From an uncultured archaeon (GTDB lineage: Archaea; Asgardarchaeota; Jordiarchaeia; Jordiarchaeales; Jordiarchaeaceae): DNA of 64,000 nt. The position numbers and the translations under genes are program-made. Numbering within the stretch: the first letter of the stretch is position 1; each line of letters begins with the position of its first letter. The stretch is taken from NCBI GenBank assembly GCA_964510585.1, contig CAZECW010000193.1:1248-65247 (forward strand). The letters run 5' to 3'. The notes beneath the pieces were generated by a model. It searched no databases. It saw nothing but the letters and a program-made list of their open reading frames with translations, and had not been told where the DNA came from. This document shows, piece after piece, positions 9,743 to 61,369 of this stretch.

Positions 9743-9990
9743 GAGAGCTCCACACCTCCAAAAAGTTTTTGGACACAGAACTTCACTTTTTTGGGAAAAA
9801 AATGTATTTTTCTTTATTAAATCTTACTATTTTCGCGTTAAAATGTACGAAAAATAAACTTGTATTGACTTTATTTAACATAATTACATATAGATGATTA
9901 TTTTTTTATTAAAATCTAAATTTTAAGAAAAAATTATAAAAAGTTCCAAGTTATCGTCTTATAACTTACAAGCAAGATGGTGATTTTTTT

Positions 9991-43291: not shown

Positions 43292-44990
43292 GCCAGAAAG
43301 TTTATTTGAAAGTAGGGTATATAAATAGTTGTTGGTAGCTGAAGGGTTTGGCTTGGGCTTAAGAGGCTAAACAAGATGCAGCCCCCATGAGGGTGCCAAC
43401 ATAGACGCCGTTCCCCTGAGGGAAGGGCGTGTTAACTGGGTGATGGCACACCCATTGCTTCGAAGGCTCCCGATGAGCCAGAAGCAAGAATCTCCCGACT
43501 TTAGTCACGGAGAGTGTCAATTTTTGCATCGCCTGAAATAGTTATATGTCGGAGGCCTGTACCCTACCACTACGCTTTCAGGCTACTCAATGTACAGAGT
43601 TTTACCCTCTACAGCTTTGGGAACACTCCCTATGCTCTTGATTTCGGCGCCCATTCCACTAGTGGACGAAATCTGCACCAACGTCAAAAGCGTAGTTCTT
43701 CGAGCGGCGATTAGTGAAGAGCAGAAGGGTACAGCACAAACAGCCACTTGCCGGAGAGGAAGAGACCTCGGTCAGCGACGAGGACCGAGGCTCATTGTGG
43801 AACCGCGTGATCAGGGAAACAAGAAGTCAGCACCTCAGAGGGCACTATCTCCTCGCCGACAAAATCGCCACAATCCTGGGACTCCATAGAGGCCTTTAAA
43901 AAGAGGAGTAGAAACACTGCTATAAAACCCCTTGAGAAGCTTGCTGCGATGCTCATTGTGAAGGAGACGGCGAACCTGAGCTTCGAGAAGCTTCACATGG
44001 AGGCGAGAGCCACAAAGCTACGATGCCCAAAACAGACCAGGCGGAGGAAAAGGATTACAAAGGCCACGGAGTCTCCTGCCAGTACCAACAGAACTGGGCA
44101 AAGACCAAAATCCCAGAGGAGTGCCTCCAAAAGACCCTTATGCTTCTAGATCAGATGGTTGCCCAGATGTACGCGGAGCGCTCTTAGGAGATGAAAATCT
44201 TGAAGAATACAGCATGTCCTCAAAAATGGTACACCTGCATCCTCCTTAGAGAAGTCCGGGTTGCCATGAGGATTATTCTTCGACACCAAATAGTCAGATA
44301 CAATATTTTGACTAGGCTAGCAACGAACACTGTAGGGACTATAGACGCCCCACTGCTGAAGAATACGAGGGGTGCAAGAACCCTTCTGGAACAGGTACCA
44401 CCAGGCTCAACCGTCTATATGGACTGTGAGTAAGGTGTCGAGTACAAATATCTGCATTCTCACAGGGGAGAGTACTCCTCATTTTGTGTCTTAAAGCAGT
44501 ACCGGGAATGCCCTATAAGGGATACTCCGTTGCCAAGCTCAGAAGAACTTTGACTGGGAGAGATACCGCCGCTGTGAGCTTGCTTGGGAGACCCATGGGA
44601 GATAGGTGTGGCGAGGGACGGTGGCACGCTGAAGTACCGGAGGCTAGACAAGGTATGAAGTTGTCTTACTCTCAGGTACATAGCTCACAATGTTAATGTG
44701 TGGTTCACGCAACGAGCAATACTCTTCAGCAGATACAAACTTGGTAGGTGTACAGGACAGTACGTATAGGAGCCCAGAGCAGTTGTCACTGTCTGACCGC
44801 TCGGCTCAGTCGTCACGACAGCATAGCATCCGAATGGGAAGTGAATGAGGGGAAACAGAAACACTGTATGGGCTCAAGCAAAACTAATAAGCGTATAAGT
44901 ACATCAATCTTTTTACATGTTTTCACGGAAGAAAAAAAGACAAAAATATCTTCCTCTTTGGGAAAAGGTAGGCAGAAAAGCTAGATCTAC
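43265..44990. other. ~1.7 kb compositionally distinct (about 50% GC), ORF-poor segment. Candidate structured RNA or degraded foreign/mobile insertion
   Basis: Only short overlapping ORFs (<100 aa) in several frames, with low-complexity R/G/P translations. Multiple GC-rich hairpins, e.g. gagaCCTCGGTCagcgacgagGACCGAGGctc at ~43768-43799. It abuts the truncated MFS gene on one side and the nuoI 3' end on the other. Confidence 0.4.
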
Positions 44991-45092
44991 TTCCTGAGCT
45001 GGACAACAAAATACTGCAACTAACTCCAAAAAACCAAAAAGGAAACAAACAACCAACAAACAAAAAATAAATTAAAAATTAGGGAAGGAGAC

Positions 45093-45482
45093 TCACTCAG
45101 TCTCCATGTCAACGATCCATTCCATAGCCTTCCGATCCGAAGTAGCCAGCTCATACTCTGTAGTCATCGTAAGGGCATCTCTAGGGCAGCTCTCGACACA
45201 CTGTTCGCAAAACAAGCAGCGACCTAGGTCTACTCGTGGTAGTTTGCCCGCCTTATTCTTCAATTCTTCTGGATACTCTTTTGGCCAGTCTATCATTTCG
45301 ATGGCTGCGGATGGACAGTCCTTAGCGCATGTGCCACAACCGACGCATCTTTTGAGGTATAATATGTGTCTTCCTCTGAGGCGTTCGAATGGTGGTAGTT
45401 TCTCGAATGGGTAGAATATTGTGAATGGTTTTTTTGGAAGGTTTTTTAGTAGTTCGGGTTCCATTGCTCCTGGTATGGGCAT
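45093..45482 (-). CDS. nuoI: NADH-quinone oxidoreductase subunit I (2x[4Fe-4S])
   Basis: CVGCGTCAKDCP and CLFCEQCVESCP clusters. Confidence 0.85.
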   Translation of the reverse strand: MPIPGAMEPELLKNLPKKPFTIFYPFEKLPPFERLRGRHILYLKRCVGCGTCAKDCPSAAIEMIDWPKEYPEELKNKAGKLPRVDLGRCLFCEQCVESCPRDALTMTTEYELATSDRKAMEWIVDMETE

Positions 45483-45495
45483 TTTTTCACGCTCC

Positions 45496-46755
45496 TTATA
45501 TGAGTAGTGTTATCCATATTAGTAGGTTGTAGGTTGCTTGCCACTTGAATAGGTCGAAGTAGAATACAAGTTGAAGTATGAGTATGTTTAGGAATGCTAG
45601 TGGAATCAGATATTTCCAAGAGCCTCGGACTACTTGGTCTATTCTGAATCTTGCGAAGAGTGTTCTTAGGTTGGCTATTAAGAATATGATTGCGAATACT
45701 TTTATTAGGAACCATATGGTGCCGATTATGTATCCCAGTGGGAAGGCTCCCATTATTCTTTCTATTGTGGTTAGTCCTATTTCGCTTCCCGGGCCCCAGG
45801 GGCCTCCTAGGAATAGGGCTGCTGCTAGTCCCGCTGCCCATAGGTATTCGAGGTCGTTGGCTAGTCGGAATAGGGCTAGTTTTCTGCCTGATATTTCGGT
45901 TTGCCACCCCGCTACTATTTCTGTGTGTGCTTCTGGAATGTCGAAGGGTACTTTTTCAAGTTCTGCCATTTGGGAGATTATGAGTACTGCGAATGATATT
46001 GGTGCTACCAGTATGAAGGGTATGCCTATGGTTTGTTGGGCTTGGGTTATGTTTGCTATAGTTAGGACTGAGAATATTGTGGGTGTAGTTATAGGGGCTA
46101 TTCCGAGGACTGTGTTTAGGAGGTTGTTGACTTGTACTGGTACTGAGTAGTAGTAGGCCACGATTATTGCTGGTGTTAGAGTTGATAGTACTAGTGGGAT
46201 TTCGTAGGCGATGAGTTGCATTCCTGCTCTGGCTGTTCCTACTTCACTGAATCTGTCGATTGAGAACCAGCCGGTTAATATGATTGCTAGGACGTAGATT
46301 GTGGAGAGGAATAGTAGTACTATGAGGTCTCCTTCAAAGCTTATGATGCCTGCGCTTCTGTAAACGGGGATGAACATGAGCATTACCAGTGATAACGTTA
46401 GGGCAAAGATTGGTGTTGCCGCAAGGCTGCGGGCTTCTGCGCCTTTGTGCACTATATCTTCTTTGGCTAGAAGTTTTATTATGTCCGCTAATGGCTGCAG
46501 AATCCCGTGGTACCCGGTGTGGAATGGTCCTACCCGGTTTTGTAATCTGGCGTATATTTTTCGGTCGTACCATTCTGCAAAGAGTGAGACGACGCTTACG
46601 AATAGTATGCCTGGGAATATGAGTATTTTGAATAGGTCCAGTGGAAGGTTTACTTGTTGCTGGAGTAAGTATTGGATCAGTGTGATGAGGTTGCTATATT
46701 GTGGGAATAGGTATAGTATTATGTACCAGAATAGGTCAACTGCCATTTTTACCAC
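45496..46755 (-). CDS. nuoH: NADH-quinone oxidoreductase subunit H, with ~50-aa N-terminal extension
   Basis: …LFAEWYDRKIYARLQNRVGPFHTGYHGILQPLADIIKLLAKEDI… NuoH/ND1 signature. 419 aa. Confidence 0.85.
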   Translation of the reverse strand: MVKMAVDLFWYIILYLFPQYSNLITLIQYLLQQQVNLPLDLFKILIFPGILFVSVVSLFAEWYDRKIYARLQNRVGPFHTGYHGILQPLADIIKLLAKEDIVHKGAEARSLAATPIFALTLSLVMLMFIPVYRSAGIISFEGDLIVLLFLSTIYVLAIILTGWFSIDRFSEVGTARAGMQLIAYEIPLVLSTLTPAIIVAYYYSVPVQVNNLLNTVLGIAPITTPTIFSVLTIANITQAQQTIGIPFILVAPISFAVLIISQMAELEKVPFDIPEAHTEIVAGWQTEISGRKLALFRLANDLEYLWAAGLAAALFLGGPWGPGSEIGLTTIERIMGAFPLGYIIGTIWFLIKVFAIIFLIANLRTLFARFRIDQVVRGSWKYLIPLAFLNILILQLVFYFDLFKWQATYNLLIWITLLI

Positions 46756-46767
46756 CCTTTACTCTTT

Positions 46768-47946
46768 TTACCTCCCGTTCTTTTTGTAGAATTCGATGCC
46801 GTATCTTCGTAGGCTTTCTAAGTCCATTGTCCACGTTTTTTCTTTTTCGGTGTTTACGAATGTGATTCTGTCGGTGCAGCTAAGGCAGGGGTCTATTGAT
46901 GCGATGGTTATTGGTACGTCTGCGATGTAGCCTCCCTTGAGCATATATTCTACTGAGGGCCAGTTTGCGAGTGTGGGTGTTCGGATTTTTACTCTTTCAG
47001 GTTTGTCGGATCCGTTGCTTTTGATGTAATGTATGAGTTCACCTCTGGGTGCTTCGTATCTGCTTAGTACTTCTCCTTCGGGTACGCGTCTTTTGAGTTT
47101 GAGTCTTATTTCGTCTTTGGGGAGATGGTCTAGTAGCCATTGTATCATGTTGCAGGATTGAACCATTTCTAGGATGCGTACTGCCACTCTTCCGAATACG
47201 TCGCAGGTGTCCCAGGTGACTACGTCGAAGGGTACTTCGTCGTAGGCTGCGTTGGGGTCGTCTTTGCGGCAGTCCATGTTGATTCCTGAGGCTCTCAGGG
47301 TTGGTCCGACGGCTCCTAGTTTGCGGGCGATGTCTGGTGGGAGCACTCCTATACCTTGGGTTCTTTTTAGGACGGTAGGTTCATTTATGCATAGTTTGAG
47401 GTAGTAGTTTAATCTTTCTCTAAAAATGTCCATTCCCTTTTTTATTTTTGGGATGTTTTCTTTGCTTATGTCTCTTCGGACTCCGCCTATGGTGTTCATT
47501 GCGTAGTTTACTCTGTTTCCGGAAATCATTTCGAGGAAGTCCATGACTAGTTCTCGGTCCCTCCAGGTGTAGTGGAGTAGGGTGTCGAATCCAATTTCGT
47601 GTCCTGCCACTCCGAGCCACAGCATGTGGGAGTGGAGTCTCTCCAACTCGCATACGATGGTTCTTATGTAGAGTCCTCTTCGGGGGACTTCTTCGTCAAG
47701 TAGTTCTTCAACTCCTTGGACAAATGTAGTTGTGTGTGAGTGGGAGCAGATTCCACATACTCTTTCTAGTAGGTATATGTCTCGGACGTATGTTCTTAGT
47801 TCGGCTGCTTTTTCTATTCCTCGATGGTTGTATCCTATTCTAACCTTTGCGTCAACAACTTGTTCTCCATCAACTTCAACTGTGAAATTTACTGGTTCTT
47901 TTAATGCGGGGTGTTGGGGTCCTATTGGTATTTTTACAGTCGACAT
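46768..47946 (-). CDS. nuoD: NADH-quinone oxidoreductase subunit D
   Basis: …RIGYNHRGIEKAAE…; [NiFe]-hydrogenase-large-subunit-like fold typical of NuoD. 392 aa. Confidence 0.9.
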   Translation of the reverse strand: MSTVKIPIGPQHPALKEPVNFTVEVDGEQVVDAKVRIGYNHRGIEKAAELRTYVRDIYLLERVCGICSHSHTTTFVQGVEELLDEEVPRRGLYIRTIVCELERLHSHMLWLGVAGHEIGFDTLLHYTWRDRELVMDFLEMISGNRVNYAMNTIGGVRRDISKENIPKIKKGMDIFRERLNYYLKLCINEPTVLKRTQGIGVLPPDIARKLGAVGPTLRASGINMDCRKDDPNAAYDEVPFDVVTWDTCDVFGRVAVRILEMVQSCNMIQWLLDHLPKDEIRLKLKRRVPEGEVLSRYEAPRGELIHYIKSNGSDKPERVKIRTPTLANWPSVEYMLKGGYIADVPITIASIDPCLSCTDRITFVNTEKEKTWTMDLESLRRYGIEFYKKNGR

Positions 47947-47948
47947 TT

Positions 47949-48455
47949 TTACTCAACTCCTTCTGGTAGCCAATCTTTTCGGAGAGGATATACCCCCTCG
48001 GGCCAATCGTCTGGCAGTATTAAACGCTTCAGGTTGGGATGGTTCTCAAAAACTATTCCAAGAAGGTCGTGCGCTTCCCTCTCATAAAAATTGGCTGACG
48101 GTAATATATCAACTATAGTTTCAATCTTAGGGTTATTCTTAGGAATCTCTGTTTTAATGTTGGGATATGTGCGGTAACCCTGATACTTATAGAGGTGATA
48201 AACGATTTCGAAGGTTTCGCCCTTGTCAACTCCAGATATGGTGGTTACATGTTGTACGTCCCAGTTATCCTTCATCCATTGGATAACTTTGCGGTGGTCT
48301 CCCGGCTTTACTTTGATAAATATTCTTTTTGCCCTGGGAATCCACACTTCAACGGCTGCTCCAAACGCCTTCTCTATTTCTGCTTTTAGTTTTTCGTCCT
48401 CCTTTGAGGATGGCTTGGGTTTGGGCTTTGCTTTCTCAGCTTCTGGTTCTGACAT
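47949..48455 (-). CDS. nuoC: NADH-quinone oxidoreductase subunit C (30 kDa)
   Basis: …ERFEIVYHLYKY…YEREAHDLLGIVFENHP… NuoC signature. Confidence 0.85.
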   Translation of the reverse strand: MSEPEAEKAKPKPKPSSKEDEKLKAEIEKAFGAAVEVWIPRAKRIFIKVKPGDHRKVIQWMKDNWDVQHVTTISGVDKGETFEIVYHLYKYQGYRTYPNIKTEIPKNNPKIETIVDILPSANFYEREAHDLLGIVFENHPNLKRLILPDDWPEGVYPLRKDWLPEGVE

Positions 48456-48459
48456 TGCA

Positions 48460-48894
48460 TTATCCTCCTTGCAATTTTCCTATGAGTTTTGCGACGGCGT
48501 CGATTATGGCTTCTGGTTTGGGTGGACATCCGGGCACGTACATGTCAACTGGAATTATCCTGTCGTATCCTCCCTCGATGTTATAACATCCTTTAAAGAC
48601 GCCTCCAGAGATGGCGCAGTTTCCAACTGCAATCACAAATTTTGGTTCTGGCATCTGTTCGTATAGGCGTTTAAATCTGGGTGTCATCTGTTTGGTTATG
48701 GAGCCTGTACCAATCATGACGTCTGCGTGTCTCGGAGAACCTACCAGTATTATGCCGAAGCGTTCAATGTCATATCTGGGCATTAGGGCGGCGATAACTT
48801 CTATGTCACAGGCGTTACATGCTCCTGTGTTCATGTGAAAAACCCAGGGAGATTTTACTCTCGCCCAAGTTACAAGCTTATCCTTAAGTCCCAA
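48460..48894 (-). CDS. nuoB: NADH-quinone oxidoreductase subunit B (N2 cluster)
   Basis: …TGACNACDIE…GSPRHADVM…AVGNCAISGG…GCPPKP motifs. Confidence 0.9.
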   Translation of the reverse strand: MGLKDKLVTWARVKSPWVFHMNTGACNACDIEVIAALMPRYDIERFGIILVGSPRHADVMIGTGSITKQMTPRFKRLYEQMPEPKFVIAVGNCAISGGVFKGCYNIEGGYDRIIPVDMYVPGCPPKPEAIIDAVAKLIGKLQGG

Positions 48895-48911
48895 ATTTAC
48901 ACCACCTTCTC

Positions 48912-49229
48912 CTATCTCCTGTATAAGACTAACACTGCGGCTATCGTTGCAAATATTACGAATATTCCACCGTAGAGTGGATTTGCAAAGGCAGAGGTGA
49001 ATATTATGAAGCCTGCTGTTTCAAGTATTGTGAAGAAAACAGCGTAGTAGAACAGTTGCAGTCTGAACTGGAATTTCTCGGCGGGATAGTTTTCTCCACA
49101 GGCGTATACCATGAGTTTTTCTTTGCTCTTCTTTCCTTTTGGCGCTAGGAACTTTGCAGAAACATATAATCCGCAGGCGCTGAGTAGGCTGATTAACAGT
49201 GCTAGTCCAAAAGTTAGTATTCCTGCCAA
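48912..49229 (-). CDS. nuoA: NADH-quinone oxidoreductase subunit A
   Basis: 3-TM protein with the Y(E/A)CGE motif (YACGENYPAEK). Confidence 0.8.
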   Translation of the reverse strand: MAGILTFGLALLISLLSACGLYVSAKFLAPKGKKSKEKLMVYACGENYPAEKFQFRLQLFYYAVFFTILETAGFIIFTSAFANPLYGGIFVIFATIAAVLVLYRR

Positions 49230-49885
49230 AGTGCTTTTGCACCTCCAACTCTGAGAATAATAGCGTTTAGATACATTCTCCTATTTAAGGTTTCACAATA
49301 ACAGAGATTTGTATCGAATTAAAAGTTTTTCCATTGACGATTTTCCTATTTTTCCTCAGATTCTATTCCCCAAACCAACAACACTGCCCAGTATTGTGGA
49401 CAAATTTGGTAACTTCCAAAAGCTACATTCACAACAACACTAGGAACACATGGCTCTCTGTTTACTCTATTTAAAATCATACTTGTATTCATATAGCCCA
49501 CATTCCGCATCCTTTGTGATTTTTTGGTATTTTTTGTTTTTACCAGTTTCTGCTCACGTTTCTTGCGTGGATTTGGAGGTTTCCAAAAATTTTTTGATAA
49601 AGTCCAGCATTCCTCCTATAAGACTTATTCTGCAAAAATAGAAAAATAAACCGAGGGTGCGGAAAGTGGGATATAAACTTAAATAGTTAAACTCACATGA
49701 AAAATTGGACTTCAGGTTTCTACGCACACCTCGGTAAATCCCCAAGAAGGGTGGAGGGCTTCTCGTAAAGTAGCTATATAAAGACTCAAGGGGGATGGTC
49801 TGGGCTTCACAGCCTCTCCCATAAATAATCTATTGTTTCGTTTGATTCTCAAGCACATTTTACACAACGGTTTCCACAGTTTGGG

Positions 49886-50005
49886 CTCGTTTTTGTAAAA
49901 TTTCTTGTCCTTTTCCGGCTCTAAACAGGCATTTTTACACCTCTAAAAAGCCGATTTGCGCCCTTGAAACTTTTTGAAATTTGTCCACAGTAGAATGAGC
50001 TGGGT
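49886..50005. repeat. Intergenic repeat element, copy A (paralogue at 53305..53440)
   Basis: Core tccttttccggCtcTaaacaggcatttttAcacctctaaaaagccgatttgcgCccttGaaac versus tccttttccggGtcCaaacaggcatttttCtgtgcttcaaaagccgatttgcgGcttAaaac. Flanks are also similar (…gtttt(g/c)(t/a)aaa(a)ttt… upstream; …tt(g/t)(t)ccaca(g/a)tag(a/g)…agc… downstream). Confidence 0.6.
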
Positions 50006-50234
50006 TAAAAATGGCAATCTGTAAGAGGGGGTTTAGGACAATTTATATCTCCTTTCTCACAATTTTAAAAGGGACAAAAAAAGGGCTCCTGCCAGGAAGT
50101 TTAACAAAAAGTTATTTATCTTCTAATGACACGAAGAAAAGTTTAGTTTCAAAAATTGAAATCATATACTGCTAACCAAAACTGTTAATAAAATGGTTAG
50201 ACTATGCTATACTATATTTAGTGAGGTGTGAAAT

Positions 50235-50681
50235 ATGGAAGTAACGTTTGATTTGGAAGGTGAGAAGGTAACTGTTAAACTTCCCGAAGACCTATATTAC
50301 CACAATGATCACTGTTGGGTCAAGGTGGAGAATGAAAAAGCCAGAATTGGATTCGACGACTTCGGACAGGCAACTGCGGGAAAAATCCTATTTGTGAGGC
50401 TCAAACCCGAGGGAAAAACCATAGAGTTTGATAAAAGTTTTGGCTCCATAGAAACAGGAAAGTGGGTGGGTCCACTTAAGGCTCCCATTAGCGGCACCAT
50501 ATTGGAGGTCAACCCCGAACTTAAAAAGAAACCCACCATCATCAATGAGGATCCTTACGGAAAAGGATGGCTACTAGTCGTTAAACCGACAGATAACCTG
50601 AAGGCGGAATTATCTAAACTCGTCACTGGAAGTGCAATAAAGGACTGGATAAATAAAGAGATAAAAGAGCGTCTAAAATAA
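50235..50681 (+). CDS. gcvH: Glycine-cleavage H-protein-like lipoyl-carrier protein
   Basis: …IGFDDFGQATAGKILFVRLKPEGKTIEFDKSFGSIETGKWVGPLKAPISGTILEVN… matches the H-protein hybrid-barrel pattern, with Lys in the ETGKW position equivalent to ESVKA. Confidence 0.7.
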   Translation: MEVTFDLEGEKVTVKLPEDLYYHNDHCWVKVENEKARIGFDDFGQATAGKILFVRLKPEGKTIEFDKSFGSIETGKWVGPLKAPISGTILEVNPELKKKPTIINEDPYGKGWLLVVKPTDNLKAELSKLVTGSAIKDWINKEIKERLK

Positions 50682-50722
50682 ATAGAAAATCTGATCTTCC
50701 TTTTTTAGTCCCCAGGGGGTGC

Positions 50723-51817
50723 TTGAACTTGGAGGAGTGGAGGCTTTTAGACTTAGGTGCTCTACCTCCAATTGACACTCAAATTATTTACGAGGCAGTA
50801 GCGGTAGCCAGAAGCAAGGCTTTAGTTCCTGACACTCTGATACTCTGCTATCCCAAAAGTCCACTGGTCTGCATTGGATACCACCAAGAGCTGGAAAAAG
50901 AAGTAGATCATGCCTATTGCAAGTCTCAAGGAATACCCGTAGTTCGAAGAATCCTGGGGGGAGGAGCAGTTTACTTAGACCAAGGACAGCTCTTCTACCA
51001 GGTGATTGTGGATAAAAAAAGCCCCAAAGTTCCGGTTTCCATAAAGGACTTTTTCAGGAAGCTTTTGGAGGCGCCCACAAAAACCTATCAGGATTTAGGC
51101 ATACCTGCCCAGTACAAGCCCATAAACGACATTGAGGTAAATGGCAGAAAAATCAGTGGAAACGGGGCTGGAACAGTGGATAATGTTGTGAACATTTTGA
51201 CTGGAAACATCATTATGGACTTTAACTATGAAATGATGGTGAAGGTTCTAAAGGTTCCCAGCGAAAAGTTCCGAGACAAGGTGGCCAAAAGCCTTGAGGA
51301 GAGAATGACCACCATAAAGAGAGAACTTGGACACATAGTCCCCCTAGAAAAAATAAAATCCCTACTCATAAAAAACTATGAAGAAACCCTAAACATAAAA
51401 TTTAGAAGGGGAGCATTAACCAGCAACGAGCAGGAAATCATGAGGGATCTTAGGAAGAAATATGAATCCCAGGAATGGCTGAACCTCTCATATATGCGGC
51501 ACCCCGACTTGGTTAGGCGGGTCAAAATTTCGGGTGCCACCTCTGTTTCTGAGTCTGCCTATAAAGCTCCTGGAGGACTAATAAGAGTCACCATGATAAT
51601 CGAGGAAAACCGCATAAAGGAAATAATGTTTAGCGGAGACTTCTGGATATACCCTCAAGACAAGCTAGCTGAATTAGAGAAAAGCCTCACCATGGCCCCA
51701 ACCAACAGGGAGGAAATAACCAAAATAATTCGCTCCTTCTATGAAAAAGAAGGAATAGAAACCCCAGGAGTAACCCCAGAAGACTTCGCAACAGTAATAA
51801 ACCAAGCACTAGAATAA
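50723..51817 (+). CDS. lplA: Lipoate-protein ligase A family protein, paralogue 2
   Basis: …EEWRLLDLGALPPIDTQIIYEAV…GIPVVRRILGGGAVYLDQGQ… LplA catalytic motif. Confidence 0.8.
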   Translation: MNLEEWRLLDLGALPPIDTQIIYEAVAVARSKALVPDTLILCYPKSPLVCIGYHQELEKEVDHAYCKSQGIPVVRRILGGGAVYLDQGQLFYQVIVDKKSPKVPVSIKDFFRKLLEAPTKTYQDLGIPAQYKPINDIEVNGRKISGNGAGTVDNVVNILTGNIIMDFNYEMMVKVLKVPSEKFRDKVAKSLEERMTTIKRELGHIVPLEKIKSLLIKNYEETLNIKFRRGALTSNEQEIMRDLRKKYESQEWLNLSYMRHPDLVRRVKISGATSVSESAYKAPGGLIRVTMIIEENRIKEIMFSGDFWIYPQDKLAELEKSLTMAPTNREEITKIIRSFYEKEGIETPGVTPEDFATVINQALE

Positions 51818-52093
51818 ACATCTCCTGCCAAAACGTCTAAAACCTATCCTACAAATACGGTCGCCCTTTCTCTATTATGCCAAACTAGATTAGGATTTCT
51901 GTTTCCAAGATAAAAACTGGCAAAAGCTACCTTCCCTTAAAAAAAGGCGAGAGGAAGGAAGCAATAGGAGCAATGAAGCCAAACCAAAGCTAAGCGCTCC
52001 CACGTTTTTCCAAAATTGTTTTTTGCTTTTCAATATTTTTTTAAGTTTTGATGACACTTGCTTAACTAGCGTAGTTTAATTACGCTAAAATAA

Positions 52094-53164
52094 TGGAGGT
52101 GTAAAGGCCTGGAAGACTATAGGTTAACGAAGGCAGTAACTCTTTATGGATGATCCTGTAAATTGCCTCAAACCAAGCTTCTGAATCTCTTGGAAAAAGT
52201 GGGCGTTAAAAAGGATCCCTCAGGCAGAGTTGTAGGAGGAATCGGAGAAGACGCAGCGGTCATAAAAATTCAAAAAGATTTGGTGCTCATAGAAACTGTG
52301 GACTTCATAACCCCCAACGTTGACGACCCCTACATTCAAGGCAAAATAGCTGCTGTAAACGTTACCAATGATGTGTACAATGTAAATCATAATGATTTAC
52401 ATGCATAAGCCATAGGTGGAACCGACGTGGTGAGCTTTCTTGCAATACTGGGAATTCCTGAGAACATGCCCCTCAAGATGGCTGAGGAGATGTTACGGGG
52501 GATAAACGACTTGATAAGTGAGTTGGGCACCACAACCATTACTGGGGGACACACCATAATAAACCCTTGGCCCCTAGTGGGAGGCGTAGCCTCAGGAATA
52601 GCCCACCCAGACCAGATAGTAACTCACAAAGATGCGCAGCCCGGCGACATACTCATACTCACCAAACCCTTAGGCACACAACCCGCAATGGCTGTCTACA
52701 GAGGATTACGAGACCCCGCCGTGGCAGAACAAATCCTGAAGTTGGTTTCTCGAAAGGAAGCAGAAGAAATGGTTGAAAAAGGAATTAAATTGATGACCAC
52801 CTCAAATAAACCCGTGGCTGAGGTCATGAGGGTGGTTAAACCCCACGCTTCCACCGATGTCACAGGCTTCGGCTTACTCGGCCACACCCAGGGAATAGCG
52901 GAAAGCAGCAAAGTAGACATCACCATTCATACCCTACCCATCATTAAAGGCACCTTACAAATTTCGGATCTCTTTGGCTACGGCCTGCAATCTGGAGAAT
53001 CAGCAGAGACCGCTGGCGGCATGATTCTCTTTGTCCCAAGTGATTTAAAGGAAAATTTGGAACACGAACTTGACAGGAGATCTGTAACCCATTACGAGAT
53101 AGGAAAAACTAGTAAAGGGTCAGGAAAAGTAGACTTCAGCAAGGCAGAAATACTTGAAGTTTAA
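52094..53164 (+). CDS. selD: Selenophosphate synthetase (selenide, water dikinase), with in-frame TGA (Sec) at 52151-52153. No canonical start codon. Interrupted at 52381-52410 by a 30-bp palindromic insertion containing TAA, so possibly a pseudogene
   Basis: Frame after the TAA at 52091: WRCKGLEDYRLTKAVTLYG-[TGA]-SCKLPQTKLLNLLEKVG… matches the E. coli SelD N-terminus [25 protein letters not shown], with TGA at the Cys17 (Sec) position. Continues …DAAVIKI…LVLIETVDFITPNVDDPYIQGKIAAVNVTNDVY | NVNHNDLHA* | AIGGTDVVSFLAILG…GGHTII…PGDILILTKPLGT… (AIR-synthase-related fold). There is no ATG/GTG/TTG between the TAA and the TGA. The only candidate start is CTG at 52109, 7 nt after GGAGGTG. Confidence 0.7.
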
Positions 53165-53174
53165 AGCGGCAGTA

Positions 53175-53214
53175 ATGACCTGCAGACAAAACCCTTCATG
53201 GAGGTCTGCGGGGA
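53175..53214 (+). promoter_or_regulatory. Candidate SECIS-like RNA element (AUGA - 9-bp helix - AAAA apical loop - helix - GA), 11 nt after the selD stop
   Basis: ATGA(53175-78) CCTGCAGAC(53179-87) AAAAcccttcatggag GTCTGCGGG(53204-12) GA(53213-14). Nine consecutive pairs including one G-U. This is the eukaryote-type kink-turn quartet geometry (AUGA … GA), with unpaired A's immediately after the helix. Confidence 0.35.
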
Positions 53215-53304
53215 ACATTCCGCCTAGCAAGGTTGGTGCCGCCCCTACAAACTAATTAGTTTCCACACTGGTAGAAGCTTGAAGGAGCATTCCCCCTTCG
53301 TGGG

Positions 53305-53440
53305 TGTTGTTTTCAAATTTTTTATTCCTTTTCCGGGTCCAAACAGGCATTTTTCTGTGCTTCAAAAGCCGATTTGCGGCTTAAAACAACATTTTTCCTG
53401 CTTCCCGAAAATTTTCCACAATAGGTAGCTAGGCTGGCTG
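53305..53440. repeat. Intergenic repeat element, copy B (see 49886..50005)
   Basis: Core identity about 50/63, with similar flanks. Located ~270 nt upstream of nuoJ, comparable to copy A's distance from gcvH. Confidence 0.6.
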
Positions 53441-53658
53441 TGTCACACTTTTTTTGGGTTTTAACTTTAAAATTTTTGTTATAATAATATGCGGTTTCTG
53501 AATTTTAACGATTTTTCCAGTCACTAATCTCTTTCTGGGACCATTTTCGGCGGTCTTGGGCACGTAAGAGTTAAATATAACATTAAATCCAAACTAAAAC
53601 GTTTTAAAAACAACAAATTACGTGAGTGACGGATAATTCGATTTGAGAGGCGACTTGA

Positions 53659-53913
53659 ATGGTTGACCCTACAATTATTCACGTGGCTCTCATAGCTCTA
53701 GCAATAATTTTTGGAATAATCGCTGTGGAACTAAAAAGACTAGACCATGCAGTAATTTCATTCGCCGCGATGAATGTAGTCTTAGGGGCCCTATTCTACC
53801 TACTCTACGCTCCCTGGGTAGCAGTGTTCCAGTGGCTAATCTACGCCGGAGCCATAGTAGTTCTCTTACTAGTCACCGTAAGCCTCACCAGAGAAGCACG
53901 CGAGAGTGAGTAA
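53659..53913 (+). CDS. nuoJ: NADH-quinone oxidoreductase subunit J, N-terminal part (split nuoJ)
   Basis: …NVVLGALFYLLYAPWVAVFQWLIYAGAIVVLLLVTVSL matches the conserved NuoJ TM2-3 region (…AxFLAxVQVLVYxGAIMVLFLF…). Confidence 0.7.
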   Translation: MVDPTIIHVALIALAIIFGIIAVELKRLDHAVISFAAMNVVLGALFYLLYAPWVAVFQWLIYAGAIVVLLLVTVSLTREARESE

Positions 53914-53915
53914 AA

Positions 53916-54239
53916 ATGGTTAGTGAAACCATAATAAAAGTCACAAGAATTCTGGCAAGCATAATCCTAGCAGCATTCGTCATAGCAACAGTAATAAAAG
54001 TGTTCTGGCTAACCCCCGGAGTCTTCTACCCCTTCTACCTATCACTATTCCCACCAATGGCAAACGCCACAACGCCAACCGCCGCAGTTTGGCAAATAGC
54101 ATTCTTTGAAGGACAATACCTTTGGTCAAACAGAATCATCGACACCATGACACTAGCCATAGTGCTAGTCGCCACAGGAATTGGAGCAGCAATCATGCTC
54201 CGAGAAGAACCCGAAGAAGAGAAGGGAGTTGAAAAATAA
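53916..54239 (+). CDS. NADH-quinone oxidoreductase subunit J, C-terminal part (second ORF of split nuoJ)
   Basis: C-terminal …IIDTMTLAIVLVATGIGAAIMLRE resembles the NuoJ C-terminal helix (…LLVAxVGAIVLAR). Starts 3 nt after the previous ORF, in a different frame. Confidence 0.5.
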   Translation: MVSETIIKVTRILASIILAAFVIATVIKVFWLTPGVFYPFYLSLFPPMANATTPTAAVWQIAFFEGQYLWSNRIIDTMTLAIVLVATGIGAAIMLREEPEEEKGVEK

Positions 54240-54673
54240 TGGCGTTACCCGTATCACCTACAGTTTATTTGGTAGGCGCAGCCATACTCTACGGAGTTGG
54301 ACTATACTGCGTCACAACCAAAAGAAACGTCATAAAACTGGTAATCGGCATTGAAATACTGGTCGCAGCAGCCCACCTAAACTTCATAGCCTTTTCAGCA
54401 TACAGATGGTTCACCCAATGGGCCCTAGGCATATTCTCAGTCTTCAGCAGCATGGGAATAACCGACAACCTCACCCTGACACTACTTGGATCCTACTTCA
54501 TCACAGCCAACCTCTACACACCGCTCTACGTTGACCCCCTAGCACACGCCATAGTGATAATATCCATTGTTCTTGGAGGCTGTGTAGTAGCAATCGCCCT
54601 GTCCTTCATAGTGAACCTCTACAAGCACTACGGAACTCTAGACTCAGAAAAAATGAGAAAACTAAAATGGTAG
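54239..54673 (+). CDS. nuoK: NADH-quinone oxidoreductase subunit K (with internal insertion)
   Basis: …KRNVIKLVIGIEILVAAAHLNFIAFS… matches the NuoK core (RRNxIxxLMSIELMLNAVNLNFVAFS). Confidence 0.7.
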   Translation: MALPVSPTVYLVGAAILYGVGLYCVTTKRNVIKLVIGIEILVAAAHLNFIAFSAYRWFTQWALGIFSVFSSMGITDNLTLTLLGSYFITANLYTPLYVDPLAHAIVIISIVLGGCVVAIALSFIVNLYKHYGTLDSEKMRKLKW

Positions 54674-54682
54674 GGATGAAAA

Positions 54683-57085
54683 ATGATGATACCATATGCA
54701 CCTTGGCTTGTTTGGATAATTCCCATGTTAGGAGCAGTCCTAACACCCCTATTTAGCAAAATCCACCACAAATTCAGAGACCTATGCGCCATACTATTCG
54801 CAGGCGCAGCAGCAGTAATAGCCATAAGCATGATACCAGACATATGGGCCGGATACATAACCCTACCCCAACCACAAATACTACTGGGACTAACAGCATT
54901 CCCCACATACCCCTGGGACATAACAATACCCCTAACCACAGACTGGCACATAATCATCAAGTGGATGGCACTCATACCCTACGACTGGACCTACCTCTGG
55001 ATACCCAACATCCCCATAAACCCACCATCACAAATAGGAGTCTACCTACCCCAAGGACTATACGCAGGAGTACTAGTAGACCCACTAAGCATATTCATGG
55101 CCAACGTAACCGCATGCATAGGATTCCTAATAATGGTCTTCTCCCTAGGCTACATGCACGGAGAACCAGACCTAACACGCTACTGGTTCTTCATGAACTT
55201 CTTCATCGGCGGCATGATATTCCTAGTAATATCCGACAACCTCATCCAAATGTTCATAGGCTGGGAAATAGTTGGGCTCTGCAGCTGGGGCCTAATAGGC
55301 TTCTGGCACAAAGCCCGAGAACCAAGCCCAGTCCCCGACTACGTAACAGAGGGAGAGTACAACGCCTACTGCGGCATGAAAGCATTCATAACCACAAAAG
55401 TCGGCGACATAGCCCTACTAATAGCAATAGTAATCATATTCTTCGCCTCCGGAACCTTCAACTACGCCCAACTACAGCAAAACGCAGCAATACAACTCCT
55501 CAACCCACTAATAGGCCTCACAAGTAATGGTCTGGGTTGGGTGAGCAGCCTAGCCATAAGAGGACTACTCCCCGCAGTAGCCATACTATTCTTCGGCGGC
55601 CCAGTAGCAAAATCCGCACAGTTCCCACTAGACGTATGGTTACCAGAAGCCATGGCTGGTCCCACAACAGTCTCAGCACTCATACACGCTGCCACCATGG
55701 TAAAGGCAGGTGTATACCTAGTAGCCAGAATGCTACCCATATTCTTCGGAGTACCACACCTACTACAAACCCTAATAGTAGACCCCACACTATATACACT
55801 CTATGGCCTAACCCTCAACGCCCAACAATGGCTCCTACTCTACATAAACGTCCAAATGGGAATACAAATCTTCTTCACAACCGTTGCCATCATAGGAGGA
55901 TTCACAGCCTTCCTCACAGCCAGCATGGGCCTAGTAGCAAGCGAAATCAAAAAAGTCCTAGCCTACTCCACCATGTCACAAATTGGATACATGATGCTTG
56001 CCCTGGGAATCGCTGGAATCTCTGGAGTCACAGCCATGGGATTTCTCGCTGGTACATTCCACCTCATGGCCCACGCCATCTTCAAGGCCCTATTGTTCCT
56101 TAGCGCCGGAGCGGTTCTCCACGCTGTGGAAACTAAGAACATGTTTGAGATGGGTGGCCTAAAAACAAGGATGCCCATCACATACGCCTGCTTCCTTGTG
56201 GGTGCTCTATCCCTAGCGGGCTTTCCAGGATTTGCCGGCTTCTTCAGCAAGGAGGCAATACTCGGCGCAACACTACAAGCAAACCAACTAATTCTCTTCG
56301 CATTGGCAGGAATTGTGGTAGCAATGACCACCTTCTACACATTCCGTATGTTGGGATTAACCTTCCACGGACCAGAAAGCAAACATGTCAAAAGCTACGA
56401 GAAGGAAAAAGGGCCAGTTCACGAGGCCCCACCAGTCATGTGGACACCACTAGTAGTACTGGCTGGCGGCACAATACTAGCTGGATGGTTTGAGCCAGTT
56501 TTCAGAAAATACTTCCTAGGACCATTCACCAACTACCTGCACAGTTTCCAGGAGCTTTTCCACGTACAGCCATACCTTCTAGGCGGGCTGATTTTCAGTG
56601 AAGTCCCCTATGGCCTGTCCGAAGAGGCAACTCTACTCTTGGAGTACTGGCACTACTTTGAGATGACCAGTTACAGCGGATGGCTGGCAGAACTGGCAAG
56701 CGCTTGGCCATCAATCCTGCTTTCACTGGGACTATTCGCTCTGGGCTTCATACCTGCTTGGTACTACTACATATCCCGAAGGGGCGCCGCAGAAAGAATA
56801 ACCAGCAGCCGTTTGGGTGGAGCTATCTGGAAATTCTTGGTAAACAGGTGGTATATCAACCAGCTCTACCACATAGTTTTCGTCAAGGGATTCCTGGCGG
56901 GAATCGCTTGGCTCTACAGAAACCTGGAAGTCAAGGTTCTTGACGGATTCAACTACGCTACTGCAAAGTTGACCATAGTGGTAAGCGACAAGTTCAGAAG
57001 GACACAGACTGGAATAGCGTTCATCAATGCACTAATGATAGTTTTGGGAGTGACAATACTGGCAATAATATTTGTACTATGGTAG
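54683..57085 (+). CDS. nuoL: NADH-quinone oxidoreductase subunit L (long form, 800 aa)
   Basis: Mrp-antiporter-like core …FIGWEIVGLCSW…, …ALIHAATMVKAGVYLVARM…, …HAIFKALLFLSAG… Long amphipathic C-terminal extension typical of NuoL. Confidence 0.85.
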   Translation: MMIPYAPWLVWIIPMLGAVLTPLFSKIHHKFRDLCAILFAGAAAVIAISMIPDIWAGYITLPQPQILLGLTAFPTYPWDITIPLTTDWHIIIKWMALIPYDWTYLWIPNIPINPPSQIGVYLPQGLYAGVLVDPLSIFMANVTACIGFLIMVFSLGYMHGEPDLTRYWFFMNFFIGGMIFLVISDNLIQMFIGWEIVGLCSWGLIGFWHKAREPSPVPDYVTEGEYNAYCGMKAFITTKVGDIALLIAIVIIFFASGTFNYAQLQQNAAIQLLNPLIGLTSNGLGWVSSLAIRGLLPAVAILFFGGPVAKSAQFPLDVWLPEAMAGPTTVSALIHAATMVKAGVYLVARMLPIFFGVPHLLQTLIVDPTLYTLYGLTLNAQQWLLLYINVQMGIQIFFTTVAIIGGFTAFLTASMGLVASEIKKVLAYSTMSQIGYMMLALGIAGISGVTAMGFLAGTFHLMAHAIFKALLFLSAGAVLHAVETKNMFEMGGLKTRMPITYACFLVGALSLAGFPGFAGFFSKEAILGATLQANQLILFALAGIVVAMTTFYTFRMLGLTFHGPESKHVKSYEKEKGPVHEAPPVMWTPLVVLAGGTILAGWFEPVFRKYFLGPFTNYLHSFQELFHVQPYLLGGLIFSEVPYGLSEEATLLLEYWHYFEMTSYSGWLAELASAWPSILLSLGLFALGFIPAWYYYISRRGAAERITSSRLGGAIWKFLVNRWYINQLYHIVFVKGFLAGIAWLYRNLEVKVLDGFNYATAKLTIVVSDKFRRTQTGIAFINALMIVLGVTILAIIFVLW

Positions 57086-57097
57086 GAGGAATAAGAA

Positions 57098-58918
57098 ATG
57101 ATAAACAACATTTTAGCAAGCTACGAACTACTTGCATCAATAGCAGTACTACTAATAATGGGACCCATAGTTTACCTTATAGGAAAAAAGTCCGGCAAAG
57201 CTGCAAGATGGCTAGCCTTCCTAACCGCAGCAACATCAGCAGCACTCCTAGCACACATAGGAATAATTTTACTCGACCCCTACGCAGTATCCCTAACAGT
57301 AACAATTGACTCCACGACATGGACTTACAGCTTCATATACTCAAGCCAAATAGTGCCAACCGCCGCATTACAGTTCAATGTGCAACTCTACCCCTTCACC
57401 ACTTCCCTCAACCAAATCCCATGGATATGGAACAACTTCGACCGAGCAATAGCAGTCCCCATGTATCAGGCATACAGTGTAATACCCGACTACCCATACC
57501 TTGTACTGCTCTCCATGGATCCCCTAAGCAACATTCCAAGACTTCCTTCGCTTACCGCTGGCCTACTCGCCGACGGTTTAAGCTATCCCATAGCCATACT
57601 CATCTCGGGATTGGGCGCCGCTGTAATGTTCTTCTCCGCCTACTACATGAAGGACGTAGAGAGTCCAGGAAGCTTCTTTGGAAACATGCTATTCTTCATC
57701 GGTGGCATGATTGGAGTAGTACTGGCAACCACAGTAATAGAGTTCTTCATCTTCTGGGAAGTAATGCTAATACCATCGTACATACTGGTGAACCAGTTCG
57801 GACTGACCGAGAATAAGAGCAGAACCGCCCTCAAATACTTCCTGTGGACCACATTCGGCAGCGTAATAATGTTTGTAGGAATATTCATGATGGGCGTAAC
57901 CCTAAACACCTTCGACTTCCAACAAATGACCCTCAACCTAGCAGCAGCACAAACCGCATACGCAACCTACCTTGGCACACTCATACCCTTCGGAGCAACA
58001 TTCAACCAGTGGCTAAGCCTATTCCTAACCGGACTGGTACTCGTCATACCCGCAATACTAATCTTCATCGGCTTCGCAGTCAAAATGGCAATATTCCCAC
58101 TCCACACCTGGCTACCAGACACATATATGGAAGCACCAATGCCCGTCGTCCTACTATTAAGTGCGGCCATGACCAAAACCGCAGCCTACGGTATCGCCAG
58201 ATTCCTAGTAATCTACATGGGCCCATCACTACAAATGCTCCAAGTAAGCCTAGCAATAATCGGACTAGTAACCGCAGCTTACGGCGGAATCATGGCATTA
58301 ACACAAAACAACCTAAAGAAAATGCTAGCCTACTCATCTATGAGTCAAATGGGATATATTTTGTTCGGCTTTGCTATGGTTTCGGTGCTGGGTGTGAACG
58401 GTTCGCTTCTACATATTTTGAACCATGGTATTTGCATGGGCGTATGGTTTATGGTTGCAGCAATCATATCGAAGGCTACTGGCACCTTGGACTTCGATAA
58501 ACTTGGAGGTTTGTCTGAGAGGATGCCCGCAGTGGCCGCAATTGCTGTTATCGCTGGTTTATCAGTAGCTGGTGTTCCGCCCCTACTGGGCTTCTCCAGT
58601 GAGTGGATGATCTTTGCGGGTGGCGTGATGGCCACTCAGTACCTGCTTACAGCATTGTTAATAGTGGCTACCGCAATCACACTGGGCTACTATCTATGGG
58701 CGGTTCGTCGGATTTTCTTCGGACCACTAAAAGAGGGACTTGAGAAAGTGACTACTCCTCGAAGCCTACTGGCTCCAATTGTAGTTCTAGCAGCCTTCAT
58801 AATCGTGTTGGGCATAGCGCCAGCAATTGCCACACAGTACTTTACGCCGATAATCAACCAGATACTTGCGCCATGGTATGGATACCAACAAATACTGTAT
58901 TTATTAGGAGGCCTGTAA
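57098..58918 (+). CDS. nuoM: NADH-quinone oxidoreductase subunit M
   Basis: …FFIFWEVMLIPSYILV…, …HTWLPDTYMEAPMPVVLLLSA…, …ILNHGICMG… antiporter-like motifs. 606 aa. Confidence 0.85.
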   Translation: MINNILASYELLASIAVLLIMGPIVYLIGKKSGKAARWLAFLTAATSAALLAHIGIILLDPYAVSLTVTIDSTTWTYSFIYSSQIVPTAALQFNVQLYPFTTSLNQIPWIWNNFDRAIAVPMYQAYSVIPDYPYLVLLSMDPLSNIPRLPSLTAGLLADGLSYPIAILISGLGAAVMFFSAYYMKDVESPGSFFGNMLFFIGGMIGVVLATTVIEFFIFWEVMLIPSYILVNQFGLTENKSRTALKYFLWTTFGSVIMFVGIFMMGVTLNTFDFQQMTLNLAAAQTAYATYLGTLIPFGATFNQWLSLFLTGLVLVIPAILIFIGFAVKMAIFPLHTWLPDTYMEAPMPVVLLLSAAMTKTAAYGIARFLVIYMGPSLQMLQVSLAIIGLVTAAYGGIMALTQNNLKKMLAYSSMSQMGYILFGFAMVSVLGVNGSLLHILNHGICMGVWFMVAAIISKATGTLDFDKLGGLSERMPAVAAIAVIAGLSVAGVPPLLGFSSEWMIFAGGVMATQYLLTALLIVATAITLGYYLWAVRRIFFGPLKEGLEKVTTPRSLLAPIVVLAAFIIVLGIAPAIATQYFTPIINQILAPWYGYQQILYLLGGL

Positions 58919-58919
58919 A

Positions 58920-60674: not shown

Positions 60675-60856
60675 ATCTAATTCAATACCTTTTTTATTTT
60701 TTTTGGGAAAAATTGTCCTCGTCTTCTAGCCCTTTTTTGAGTTTTTGCTTCTTGGTGAATCTTTTCGAGACCATGTTCTTAGGGTAGTATGAGCCTTGAT
60801 TTTTTGGAAAAGATTTAATTGTTTATTCTATGATAGATGTTTCTGAGGGCTGATGT

Positions 60857-61306: not shown

Positions 61307-61369
61307 TTTTTATATGGGTAATTATCATAGTTGTCCCTGTCTCAAAAAGCGTCATTGGCGGGGTAGCTT

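Follow-up and report, generated by a model that had tools for sequence, protein, structure and literature searches.

What, if anything, do two similar intergenic sequences do when they sit on either side of a three-gene cassette inside a complex I gene cluster, and do they act as RNA, as protein-coding sequence or as DNA? The locus lies in a 64-kb stretch of contig CAZECW010000193.1 (64,000 nucleotides, hereafter the window, meaning the whole stretch of DNA that was analysed) from a hot-spring Asgard archaeon of the class Jordarchaeia ('Freyarchaeota'). Its genes run in the order nuoI-H-D-C-B-A (minus strand), gcvH-lplA-selD (plus strand) and nuoJ-K-L-M-N (plus strand). Copy A of the repeat is in IG1, the ~1-kb intergenic region between the starts of nuoA (49229, minus strand) and gcvH (50235, plus strand), and copy B is in IG2, the ~0.5-kb region that precedes nuoJ. 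We find that the repeat is real and restricted to two copies per genome in one narrow clade, and we tentatively read the copies as cis-acting DNA modules. The same locus holds what is probably an intron in selD, which we judge to be of more interest than the repeat.

The gene names given in an initial annotation of this DNA agree with the Pfam domains found at the locus, which are GCV_H, LplA, a split AIRS/AIRS_C pair (selD), Oxidored_q3/q2 and three Proton_antipo genes. The Pfam scan took in 30 open reading frames (ORFs) of the window, and called genes of related loci were examined as well.

A two-copy intergenic repeat

The two-copy intergenic repeat is real. A repeat search of the window returned a 45-nt direct repeat with 82% identity (49892-49936 and 53310-53354), and the best Smith-Waterman alignment of IG1 with IG2 pairs 49889-49970 with 53306-53387, with 67 of 79 positions identical. 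Its score of 71 compares with 24 +/- 2.7 in dinucleotide shuffles (z=17), which upholds the initial annotation both in where it placed the copies and in its claim that their similarity is far above chance. The exact 15-mer AAAAGCCGATTTGCG is common to 49946-49960 and 53364-53378. This 15-mer has two matches in 64 kb where shuffles predict 0.15, and a 29-nt core pattern likewise has two matches where 0.00 are expected. A third shared box, GAAAWTTKTCCACARTAG (49976-49993 and 53407-53424), lies beyond a variable stretch that includes a 15-nt indel. No similarity between A and B was found outside ~49865-50005 and ~53283-53440, and it does not extend into the selenocysteine insertion sequence (SECIS) of selD, the upstream regions or the promoter-proximal regions. 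Each unit is therefore ~140-160 bp in length.

The initial annotation had not remarked that the copies, 3.4 kb apart, are direct repeats on either side of a cassette that splits an 11-subunit complex I cluster, nor that only ~60 nt separate the selD SECIS from the start of copy B, which falls within the terminator zone of selD. Coordinates are collected in Table 1.

Table 1. Positions of the repeat units, their parts and associated features in the window
Feature	Position	Strand	Basis or remark
Copy A, whole unit, IG1 between nuoA (-) and gcvH	49865..50005	+	nhmmer match 49880-50012, E=8e-33; alignments
Copy B, whole unit, IG2 between selD 3' untranslated region (UTR) and nuoJ	53283..53440	+	nhmmer match 53300-53442, E=4e-41; alignments
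A, T-rich block (T5 at 49890, T4 at 49911), oligo-T terminator-like zone	49889..49917	+	T-run listing
B, T-rich block (T4, T6, T4)	53306..53335	+	first T runs of at least 4 listed from 53250, downstream of selD SECIS
A, core 1 TCCTTTTCCGGCTCTAAACAGGCATTTTT, with left half-site CAGGC and T tract	49908..49936	+	90% identical to B core 1
B, core 1 TCCTTTTCCGGGTCCAAACAGGCATTTTT	53326..53354	+	pattern match, segment identity
A, variable spacer ACACCTCTA, between inverted arms GGCATTTTT / AAAAAGCC	49937..49945		segment identity
B, variable spacer CTGTGCTTC	53355..53363		segment identity
A, core 2 AAAAGCCGATTTGCGCCC, best-conserved block of the family	49946..49963	+	AAAAG..ATTT..G.C.T invariant in 10 copies
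B, core 2 AAAAGCCGATTTGCGGCT	53364..53381	+	AAAAG..ATTT..G.C.T invariant in 10 copies
A, box 3 GAAATTTGTCCACAGTAG	49976..49993	+	shared-box comparison
B, box 3 GAAAATTTTCCACAATAG, with palindrome GAAAATTTTC	53407..53424	+	shared-box comparison
Solo degenerate box 3 copy 'C' AAATTTGTCCACAATA, toward nuoA	49392..49412	-	box sequence 49392-49407; repeat search; weak nhmmer match, E=0.73
GTTTCCACA upstream of A	49870..49878	+	motif count
GTTTCCACA-related motif upstream of B	53259..53267	+	motif count
Cassette between A and B	50235..53164	+	gcvH 50235-50681, lplA 50723-51817, selD ~52103-53164
SECIS-like element, selD 3' UTR, just upstream of B	53166..53242	+	AUGA...GA core, conserved fold

Anatomy of the units

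We compared 9-10 distinct copies, and computed segment identities for A against B in the window. The two units are alike in a very uneven manner. Identity is 50% in the T-rich block (~80% of the A block is kept between orthologues), 90% in core 1, 22% in the 9-nt spacer, 89% in core 2, 17% in the next ~25 nt and 83% in box 3, which contains GAAA(W)TTTC-type palindromes. Across 10 copies, the distance from the GGC of the left arm to the GCC of the right arm varies by no more than 1 nt, and the spacer sequence between them is free. Such uneven identity between paralogues suggests constrained half-sites rather than a uniformly decaying duplicate. As in an operator, the arms GGCATTTT and AAAAGCC are kept at a fixed distance across a free spacer. 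The initial annotation had leaned toward a protein-binding module, and this leaning fits the constant half-site spacing, the free spacer and the helically phased A/T tracts described below.

Both units are bracketed by TTTCCACA-like motifs. These motifs belong to the homologous unit and one of them is ancestral sequence. IG1 and IG2, 1.5 kb in total, contain five occurrences of the hexamer TCCACA, against 1.6 expected. A solo copy of box 3, absent from the initial annotation, is located 163 nt upstream of nuoA and represents the last box only. It is also found in the lineages L002, L017 and L023.

Copy number and phylogenetic range

One genome from each of 185,579 species was scanned with a degenerate pattern that fits both copies of the window and both copies of L002. 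Within Jordarchaeia the matches are only at the A and B loci, and the remaining matches, about a dozen, are chance occurrences in bacteria. In SQRJ_82, where both copies fit the pattern, there are exactly two matches. An nhmmer profile search across the window and 112 loci found nothing besides A and B. With only two loci per genome, the element is not a dispersed repeat. A scan of a viral collection gave a single match, probably due to chance.

A and B are present in five lineages, namely the window with L001, the L002-L006 group, QZM_A3 with L017, RPF2 with L013 and L110, and L023 with L024. The LplA proteins of these element-bearing lineages are at least 90% identical. When metagenomes were scanned with LplA for additional orthologues, only distant lineages were recovered, and these lack the element. 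Sister Jordarchaeia that lack the element have shorter intergenic regions (IG1 365-731 nt; IG2 342 nt in L026), in which only ~110-150-nt sequences beside nuoA, gcvH and nuoJ are kept, plus the SECIS. At the place equivalent to the B T-rich block, L026 has a T5 run. The element is thus young or fast-evolving, and local.

The initial annotation had held that the similarity would be a matter of chance or local duplication if the genome contained no further copies and the orthologous regions were not conserved. The genome indeed has no further copies, which argues for local duplication, whereas the orthologous sequences are conserved within the narrow clade.

Conservation, concerted evolution and spacing

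When the window is aligned with L023, identity is 70-94% in the T block, core 1 and core 2, and 36-55% in their flanks. The corresponding value for four-fold sites of gcvH, lplA and selD is ~62%. In a comparison of L023 with L002, positions that A and B share in the window are conserved more often than other positions (75% vs 55%, p=0.002). We conclude that constraint on the element is real but moderate, and is centred on the arms and core 2.

The A- and B-specific flanks, spacers and indels show that the duplication is older than the split of the five lineages. Within core 1 of the window, however, the paralogues (90% identical) are more alike than the orthologues (70-77%), which is a sign of concerted evolution. 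In L023, both copies carry GGAATTTTCAC and ATTTACG, and the B copy has an A-type spacer. Such patterns are suggestive of gene conversion, or of both copies co-evolving with one partner.

The locus as a whole is a recombination mosaic when the window is compared with L023. The nuo genes (~43500-49270 and 53560-61600) are 97-100% identical, with 95-98% identity at four-fold sites of nuoJ2 (the second nuoJ ORF), nuoK and nuoL, and the block ~49300-53560, from IG1 through gcvH-lplA-selD to IG2, is 67-90% identical. We rejected the idea that A and B are themselves recombination breakpoints, because the diverged block holds both copies and identity shifts gradually outside them.

The initial annotation had proposed an equal spacing of ~270 nt from the downstream start codons. 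The equality is roughly true in this genome, where the start of the core is 327 nt (A) and 333 nt (B) from the start codon. B lies 342-349 nt from the start of nuoJ in every lineage, but for A the spacing is not conserved: it is 327-349 nt in three lineages and 1688 nt in L023, where 1.36 kb of inserted sequence shows that equal spacing is no conserved property of A. IG1 is an insertion hot spot, with lineage-specific inserts of 175 nt (49496-49671, specific to the window), ~195 nt (specific to L017, beside the solo box) and 1.36 kb. The last of these, at L023 8005-9378, carries an ORF of 135 amino acids with no Pfam match. It directly follows two islands, GGGTTAAAAATGGCAATCTG and the TATA-like GGGACAATTTATATCTCCTTTCTCACAATTTT, which in the window are within 50006-50068, downstream of A, and are ~100% conserved in three lineages.

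Tests for RNA structure and coding potential

The absence of a convincing RNA helix, already noted in the initial annotation, is supported by our analysis. Rfam 15 gave no match at gathering thresholds in the 64 kb, and only chance-level matches at relaxed thresholds in IG1 and IG2. Folding of the full units, on one strand or the other, gives z-scores from -0.4 to -1.65, the minimum free energy (MFE) folds of A and B differ, and the fold of the A core has a z-score of -2.45. RNAalifold applied to ten copies yields a consensus of only -2.2 kcal/mol. In hairpin 1, 85% of positions are paired, compared with 83.9% in column shuffles, and a second candidate hairpin is likewise no better. One compensatory event was seen, in one lineage (GGC/GCC to GAC/GTC in L003-L006). 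Inspection by eye for C/D-box and H/ACA-box motifs revealed no C or D boxes, and an ACA followed by T5 only in B copies. On the plus strand the unit has internal T5 runs, and on the minus strand a T5 (A) or T4 (B); T5 runs would stop archaeal RNA polymerase. On the weak Rfam, fold, alifold and pair-count results, we rejected a structured RNA as the principal explanation.

A small protein-coding gene was also rejected. The candidate minus-strand frame, RKSAF..KNACLEPEKE, has a stop codon in copy A of the window and is broken by 1-nt indels in the B copy of L002 and the A copy of L023, and no conserved ORF lies upstream. The frame appears to be coding because three differences between the A and B cores fall at 3-nt spacing. 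Minus-strand frames are interrupted differently in each lineage.

Phased A/T tracts, T runs and promoters

Both units show AA/TT periodicity with a peak at 10.5-11 bp, and it stays high in orthologues. When every 125-nt segment of the 64 kb is scored for AA/TT phasing, A and B fall in the top 0.4-0.6%, and the maximum for the entire sequence starts at 49841 and overlaps copy A. Other sites with high phasing at 10-11.5 bp are 9731-9791, 5211-5221, 20541-20581 and 38011-38061, each on or close to the boundary of a gene. It therefore seems that regulatory DNA in this genome generally carries phased A/T tracts.

Clusters of T runs (at least three runs of T5 or longer per 110 nt, plus strand) occur in ~3% of windows and cover both A and B. 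The same clusters are found just downstream of lplA, selD, nuoN and other plus-strand genes. In B, the T runs are T4, T6, T4, T5 and T5, of which three in 110 nt are counted as T5 or longer, and they begin ~60 nt after the selD SECIS, as in an oligo-T terminator.

From 27 upstream regions we derived an apparent promoter consensus for this genome, RAAAG-TTWAWAWA, which corresponds to a TFB recognition element (BRE) and TATA box. The likely promoters of gcvH, nuoJ and nuoA lie in promoter-proximal sequence that is kept in distant relatives, ~130-200 nt downstream of the elements. We considered and rejected the T-rich block and core 2 as promoters, since they have weak consensus matches only and a transcript would meet T5 within ~20 nt.

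Two further stretches near the units resemble transcription signals. Upstream of copy A, a good BRE/TATA match, GTAAAGTAGCTATATAAAG, at 49775-49793 is followed by an 18-nt island, TTTCGTTTGATTCTCAAG, at 49847-49864. This island is invariant in four lineages, its flanks are ~40-60% identical, and it ends at the T5 that opens copy A. The region 49775-49864 may correspond to a short unannotated plus-strand transcript. Upstream of nuoJ, 53560-53658 is 100% identical among close lineages and ~78% identical in L026, and includes GAGTTAAATATAAC, probably the real promoter and leader of nuoJ.

Possible functions of the repeat

We tentatively propose that A and B are lineage-specific, cis-acting DNA modules that combine a terminator zone with a protein-binding platform, a proposal whose probability we would place somewhat short of an even chance. 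The modules, ~140 bp in length, would go back to a local duplication that took place in the common ancestor of a single narrow clade of Jordarchaeia, and would act as DNA rather than as RNA genes or mobile elements. The oligo-T cluster of B would terminate the selD mRNA just past its SECIS, and that of A comes after the promoter-like box and the invariant island described above. The platform would consist of the GC half-sites CAGGC and GCCG within the arms GGCATTTTT and AAAAAGCC, ~22 bp or two helical turns apart. Because the half-sites sit in T/A tracts phased at 10.5-11 bp, this DNA would be intrinsically bent, with the GAAAWTTTTCCACA box after it. A dimeric or wrapping protein, perhaps an Lrp-like regulator or a chromatin protein, could bind the platform and thereby insulate or tune the downstream promoters of the gcvH and nuoJ operons. 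Half-site selection, together with occasional gene conversion, might then uphold the likeness of the copies. The data establish the anatomy of the units, their copy number and phylogenetic range, the phasing, the positions of the T runs and the lack of an RNA or coding signal; termination, protein binding and any influence on gcvH or nuoJ expression are inferred.

Several observations weigh against this proposal. The element is absent from the sister Jordarchaeia L025, L026, L028 and L108 (LplA 76-82% identical), in which gene order is identical. An operator would be expected to accompany its operons, so these operons evidently do not need the element, and any regulatory role must be dispensable and recent. 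The same lineages do not bear out the co-regulation of the lipoylation/selD genes with the membrane arm of complex I that the initial annotation had suggested, since they have the operons without either copy. Other intergenic sites of this genome likewise have phased A/T tracts and clusters of T runs, which are thus generic and not diagnostic. The T-run cluster of A has no annotated plus-strand gene upstream to terminate, L023 has its 1.36-kb insertion between A and gcvH, and no regulator gene adjoins the elements among the Pfam-scanned genes of the window or the called genes of related loci. A second, more independent version of the shared-position test was not significant (p=0.26). At 150-nt resolution, moreover, the elements are no better conserved than other intergenic DNA, and some lineages have one badly eroded copy, which is B in the L002 group and A in RPF2/L110.

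Some of these same facts are what would be expected of a functionless local duplication, in which a ~140-bp piece was copied between the two intergenic regions in the ancestor of the clade and has since been decaying, patched by conversion. Two copies only, 3.4 kb apart in a young clade, agree with such a history, as do the erosion of copies in some lineages, conservation no higher than in neighbouring intergenic DNA at the 150-nt scale, and signs of conversion (the A-type spacer and derived states common with A in the B copy of L023) in genomes that are recombination mosaics. Nevertheless, a passively decaying copy is hard to reconcile with ~90% identity in the arms and ~20% in the 9-nt spacer between them, given that short conversion tracts would not skip just the spacer in several lineages. 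The constant half-site distance and the orthologue identity of the blocks, which exceeds that of four-fold sites, also argue against it, and we regard a neutral duplicate as possible but rather unlikely. It is doubtful that the units are instead sibling small RNAs (sRNAs), with copy B perhaps a 3'-UTR-derived RNA, that act redundantly in trans. Internal T runs on both strands would terminate archaeal RNA polymerase inside the unit, correctly placed matches to the RAAAG-TTWAWAWA consensus are lacking, and a structured RNA of a hot-spring organism would hardly be expected to have a GC content of 35-40% and A-U stems. The absence of Rfam matches, the weak fold z-scores with differing MFE folds, the consensus energy of -2.2 kcal/mol and covariation not above controls point in the same direction. 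What speaks for sRNAs is that clade-specific paralogous units of ~100 nt with A/T-rich flanks and T runs are typical of sRNA genes, that in four of the five lineages one copy or both stay close to the consensus even where the second is free to erode, as redundant trans-acting products would, and that the arms GGCATTTT and AAAAGCC can pair as a hairpin, with one compensatory change and the z-score of -2.45 for the A core.

The arrangement of direct repeats around a 3.4-kb cassette that interrupts the nuo cluster raises the thought of a relic of a small mobile or site-specific element, either a miniature inverted-repeat transposable element (MITE) or att-like sites bounding gcvH-lplA-selD. The TTTCCACA-like motifs that bracket the units, the resemblance of the arms with their 8-10-bp spacer to recombinase core sites, and the insertion-prone nature of IG1 are compatible with this idea. 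However, the cassette has the same place in sisters without A and B, so the repeats did not arrive with it. No other copies exist in any genome scanned, inspection by eye found no terminal inverted repeats at the unit ends, neither the window nor the flanking loci encode an integrase or recombinase domain, and the window has no transposase. Spacers with 22% identity would block crossover by a tyrosine recombinase. We consider a mobile relic very unlikely, and we rejected att-, dif- or lox-like sites in particular because the spacers differ and there is no recombinase. A replication origin was rejected too, as there is no Orc1/Cdc6 gene among the 30 Pfam-scanned ORFs or the called genes of related loci; the TTTCCACA motifs are direct repeats and are not inverted around an A/T-rich centre. 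An alternative closer to our favoured proposal, and one to which we give little weight, is that the units are dedicated platforms for a lineage-specific DNA-wrapping regulator or for a positioned archaeal-histone particle, which would coordinate the divergent complex I halves and the lipoylation/selenophosphate cassette between them, or insulate them from each other. If so, the parallel base changes in L023 would reflect co-evolution with the protein and not gene conversion.

If the cis-acting DNA module that we favour is correct, A and B would represent a module of recent origin, cis-regulatory or architectural in role, that was duplicated locally and is maintained in concert in the genome of an uncultured Asgard archaeon. 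The reach of such a finding is limited to one narrow clade and two copies.

Intervening sequence and SECIS-like element in selD

selD is a selenoprotein gene, with a selenocysteine UGA codon at 52151-52153; no obvious in-frame ATG, GTG or TTG start is present upstream of this codon. The SECIS-like stem-loop in its 3' UTR is kept even in lineages with LplA 76-79% identical, and is not detected by Rfam. Eukaryote-like SECIS (eSECIS-like) elements have been described for Asgard selD genes (PMC11227280).

The selD reading frame is interrupted at 52379-52408 (plus strand) by an in-frame 30-nt sequence that ends in TAA and separates ...NDVY from AIGG.... Excision of exactly these nucleotides joins ...GTGTAC to GCCATAGG... 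and restores the universal ...NDVYAIGG... motif, and the resulting protein can be aligned with human SEPHS1 with no gap at the junction. All eight of the Jordarchaeia lineages examined have the insert. Its stem is invariant, but seven different sequences are found in its 5-nt loop; the closing pair varies among A-U, G-U and G-C, and the downstream codons evolve synonymously in frame.

These features fit a bulge-helix-bulge, with a 4-bp helix (GUGU/GCAU), 3-nt bulges (AC|A and AA|G, where the bar marks the splice site) and a 9-bp intron helix (h'). The splice sites demanded by the protein are between nucleotides 2 and 3 of each bulge, and the position at which such bulges are cleaved is known from tRNA introns. 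The motif definition is that of PMC5829648, which also reports that Asgard archaea have a broad-specificity (alpha-beta)2 endonuclease. The tRNA endonuclease thus probably splices the insert out of the mRNA as a mini-intron. We preferred splicing to a split gene, to stop-codon read-through and to ribosomal bypass, given that codons after the insert evolve synonymously and in frame, nucleotide conservation is confined to the stem, and there are no matching take-off and landing codons. In a literature search we found no earlier report of an intervening sequence in selD. If it is spliced, this would be a protein-coding mRNA intron in an Asgard archaeon, adding to the few known from other archaea.

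Other genes of the window

nuoJ (53659-54239) consists of two consecutive ORFs in every lineage seen, the first of 84 amino acids with an Oxidored_q3 domain and the second of 107 amino acids. NuoK (144 amino acids) and one antiporter-like subunit (800 amino acids) seem long for complex I. Elsewhere in the window are a gene for a Ras/Arf-family small GTPase (33308-33868, minus strand), a family that Asgard genomes typically encode, and another LplA-like gene, divergent in sequence (36817-37935, plus strand). Genes for beta-oxidation and CoA-transferases are abundant in the remainder.

Comparison with known systems

The element is best filed as a narrow-range conserved intergenic cis-element that derives from local duplication, without demonstrated membership of any named family, and it shares some features with each of several known classes. 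Like repetitive extragenic palindromic (REP) sequences, bacterial interspersed mosaic elements (BIMEs) and MITEs, the units are noncoding, ~100-150 bp long and located between operons, and have an internal imperfect palindrome. Unlike these elements, which have tens to hundreds of copies, A and B number two per genome at one locus, and no terminal inverted repeats were seen by eye at their ends. Sibling sRNA pairs, such as OmrA/B and Qrr, are also close, clade-restricted paralogues of ~100 nt with a conserved core and variable flanks. A and B differ from them in having internal T5 runs and neither a supported secondary structure nor promoter and terminator framing.

Archaeal oligo(T) terminator zones consist of several consecutive T tracts downstream of genes, as seen by Term-seq. 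The T runs of B, which follow the selD SECIS by ~60 nt, resemble these zones, and similar clusters follow lplA and nuoN. Oligo(T) terminators do not need conserved GC blocks, whereas the best-kept parts of A and B are the GC-containing cores, and A has no annotated upstream gene.

Operator arrays of the Lrp/AsnC family (feast/famine regulatory proteins, FFRPs) provide a further parallel. In E. coli, several phased sites upstream of gcvTHP are bound by Lrp, and the archaeal regulator FL11 recognizes TGAAAWWWTTTCA. The absence of the element in sisters with the same operons, the lack of a nearby regulator gene and a distance of ~130-200 nt to the likely BRE/TATA downstream, unusually long for archaea, set A and B apart from such arrays. 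Nonetheless, A and B are upstream of operon promoters, have inverted half-sites around a free spacer amid A/T tracts that are phased over ~100 bp, and contain GAAA(W)TTTC-type palindromes in box 3 that may resemble the consensus. By analogy, the element appears to be most like an Lrp/FFRP-type operator or architectural array overlaid on an archaeal multi-T terminator.

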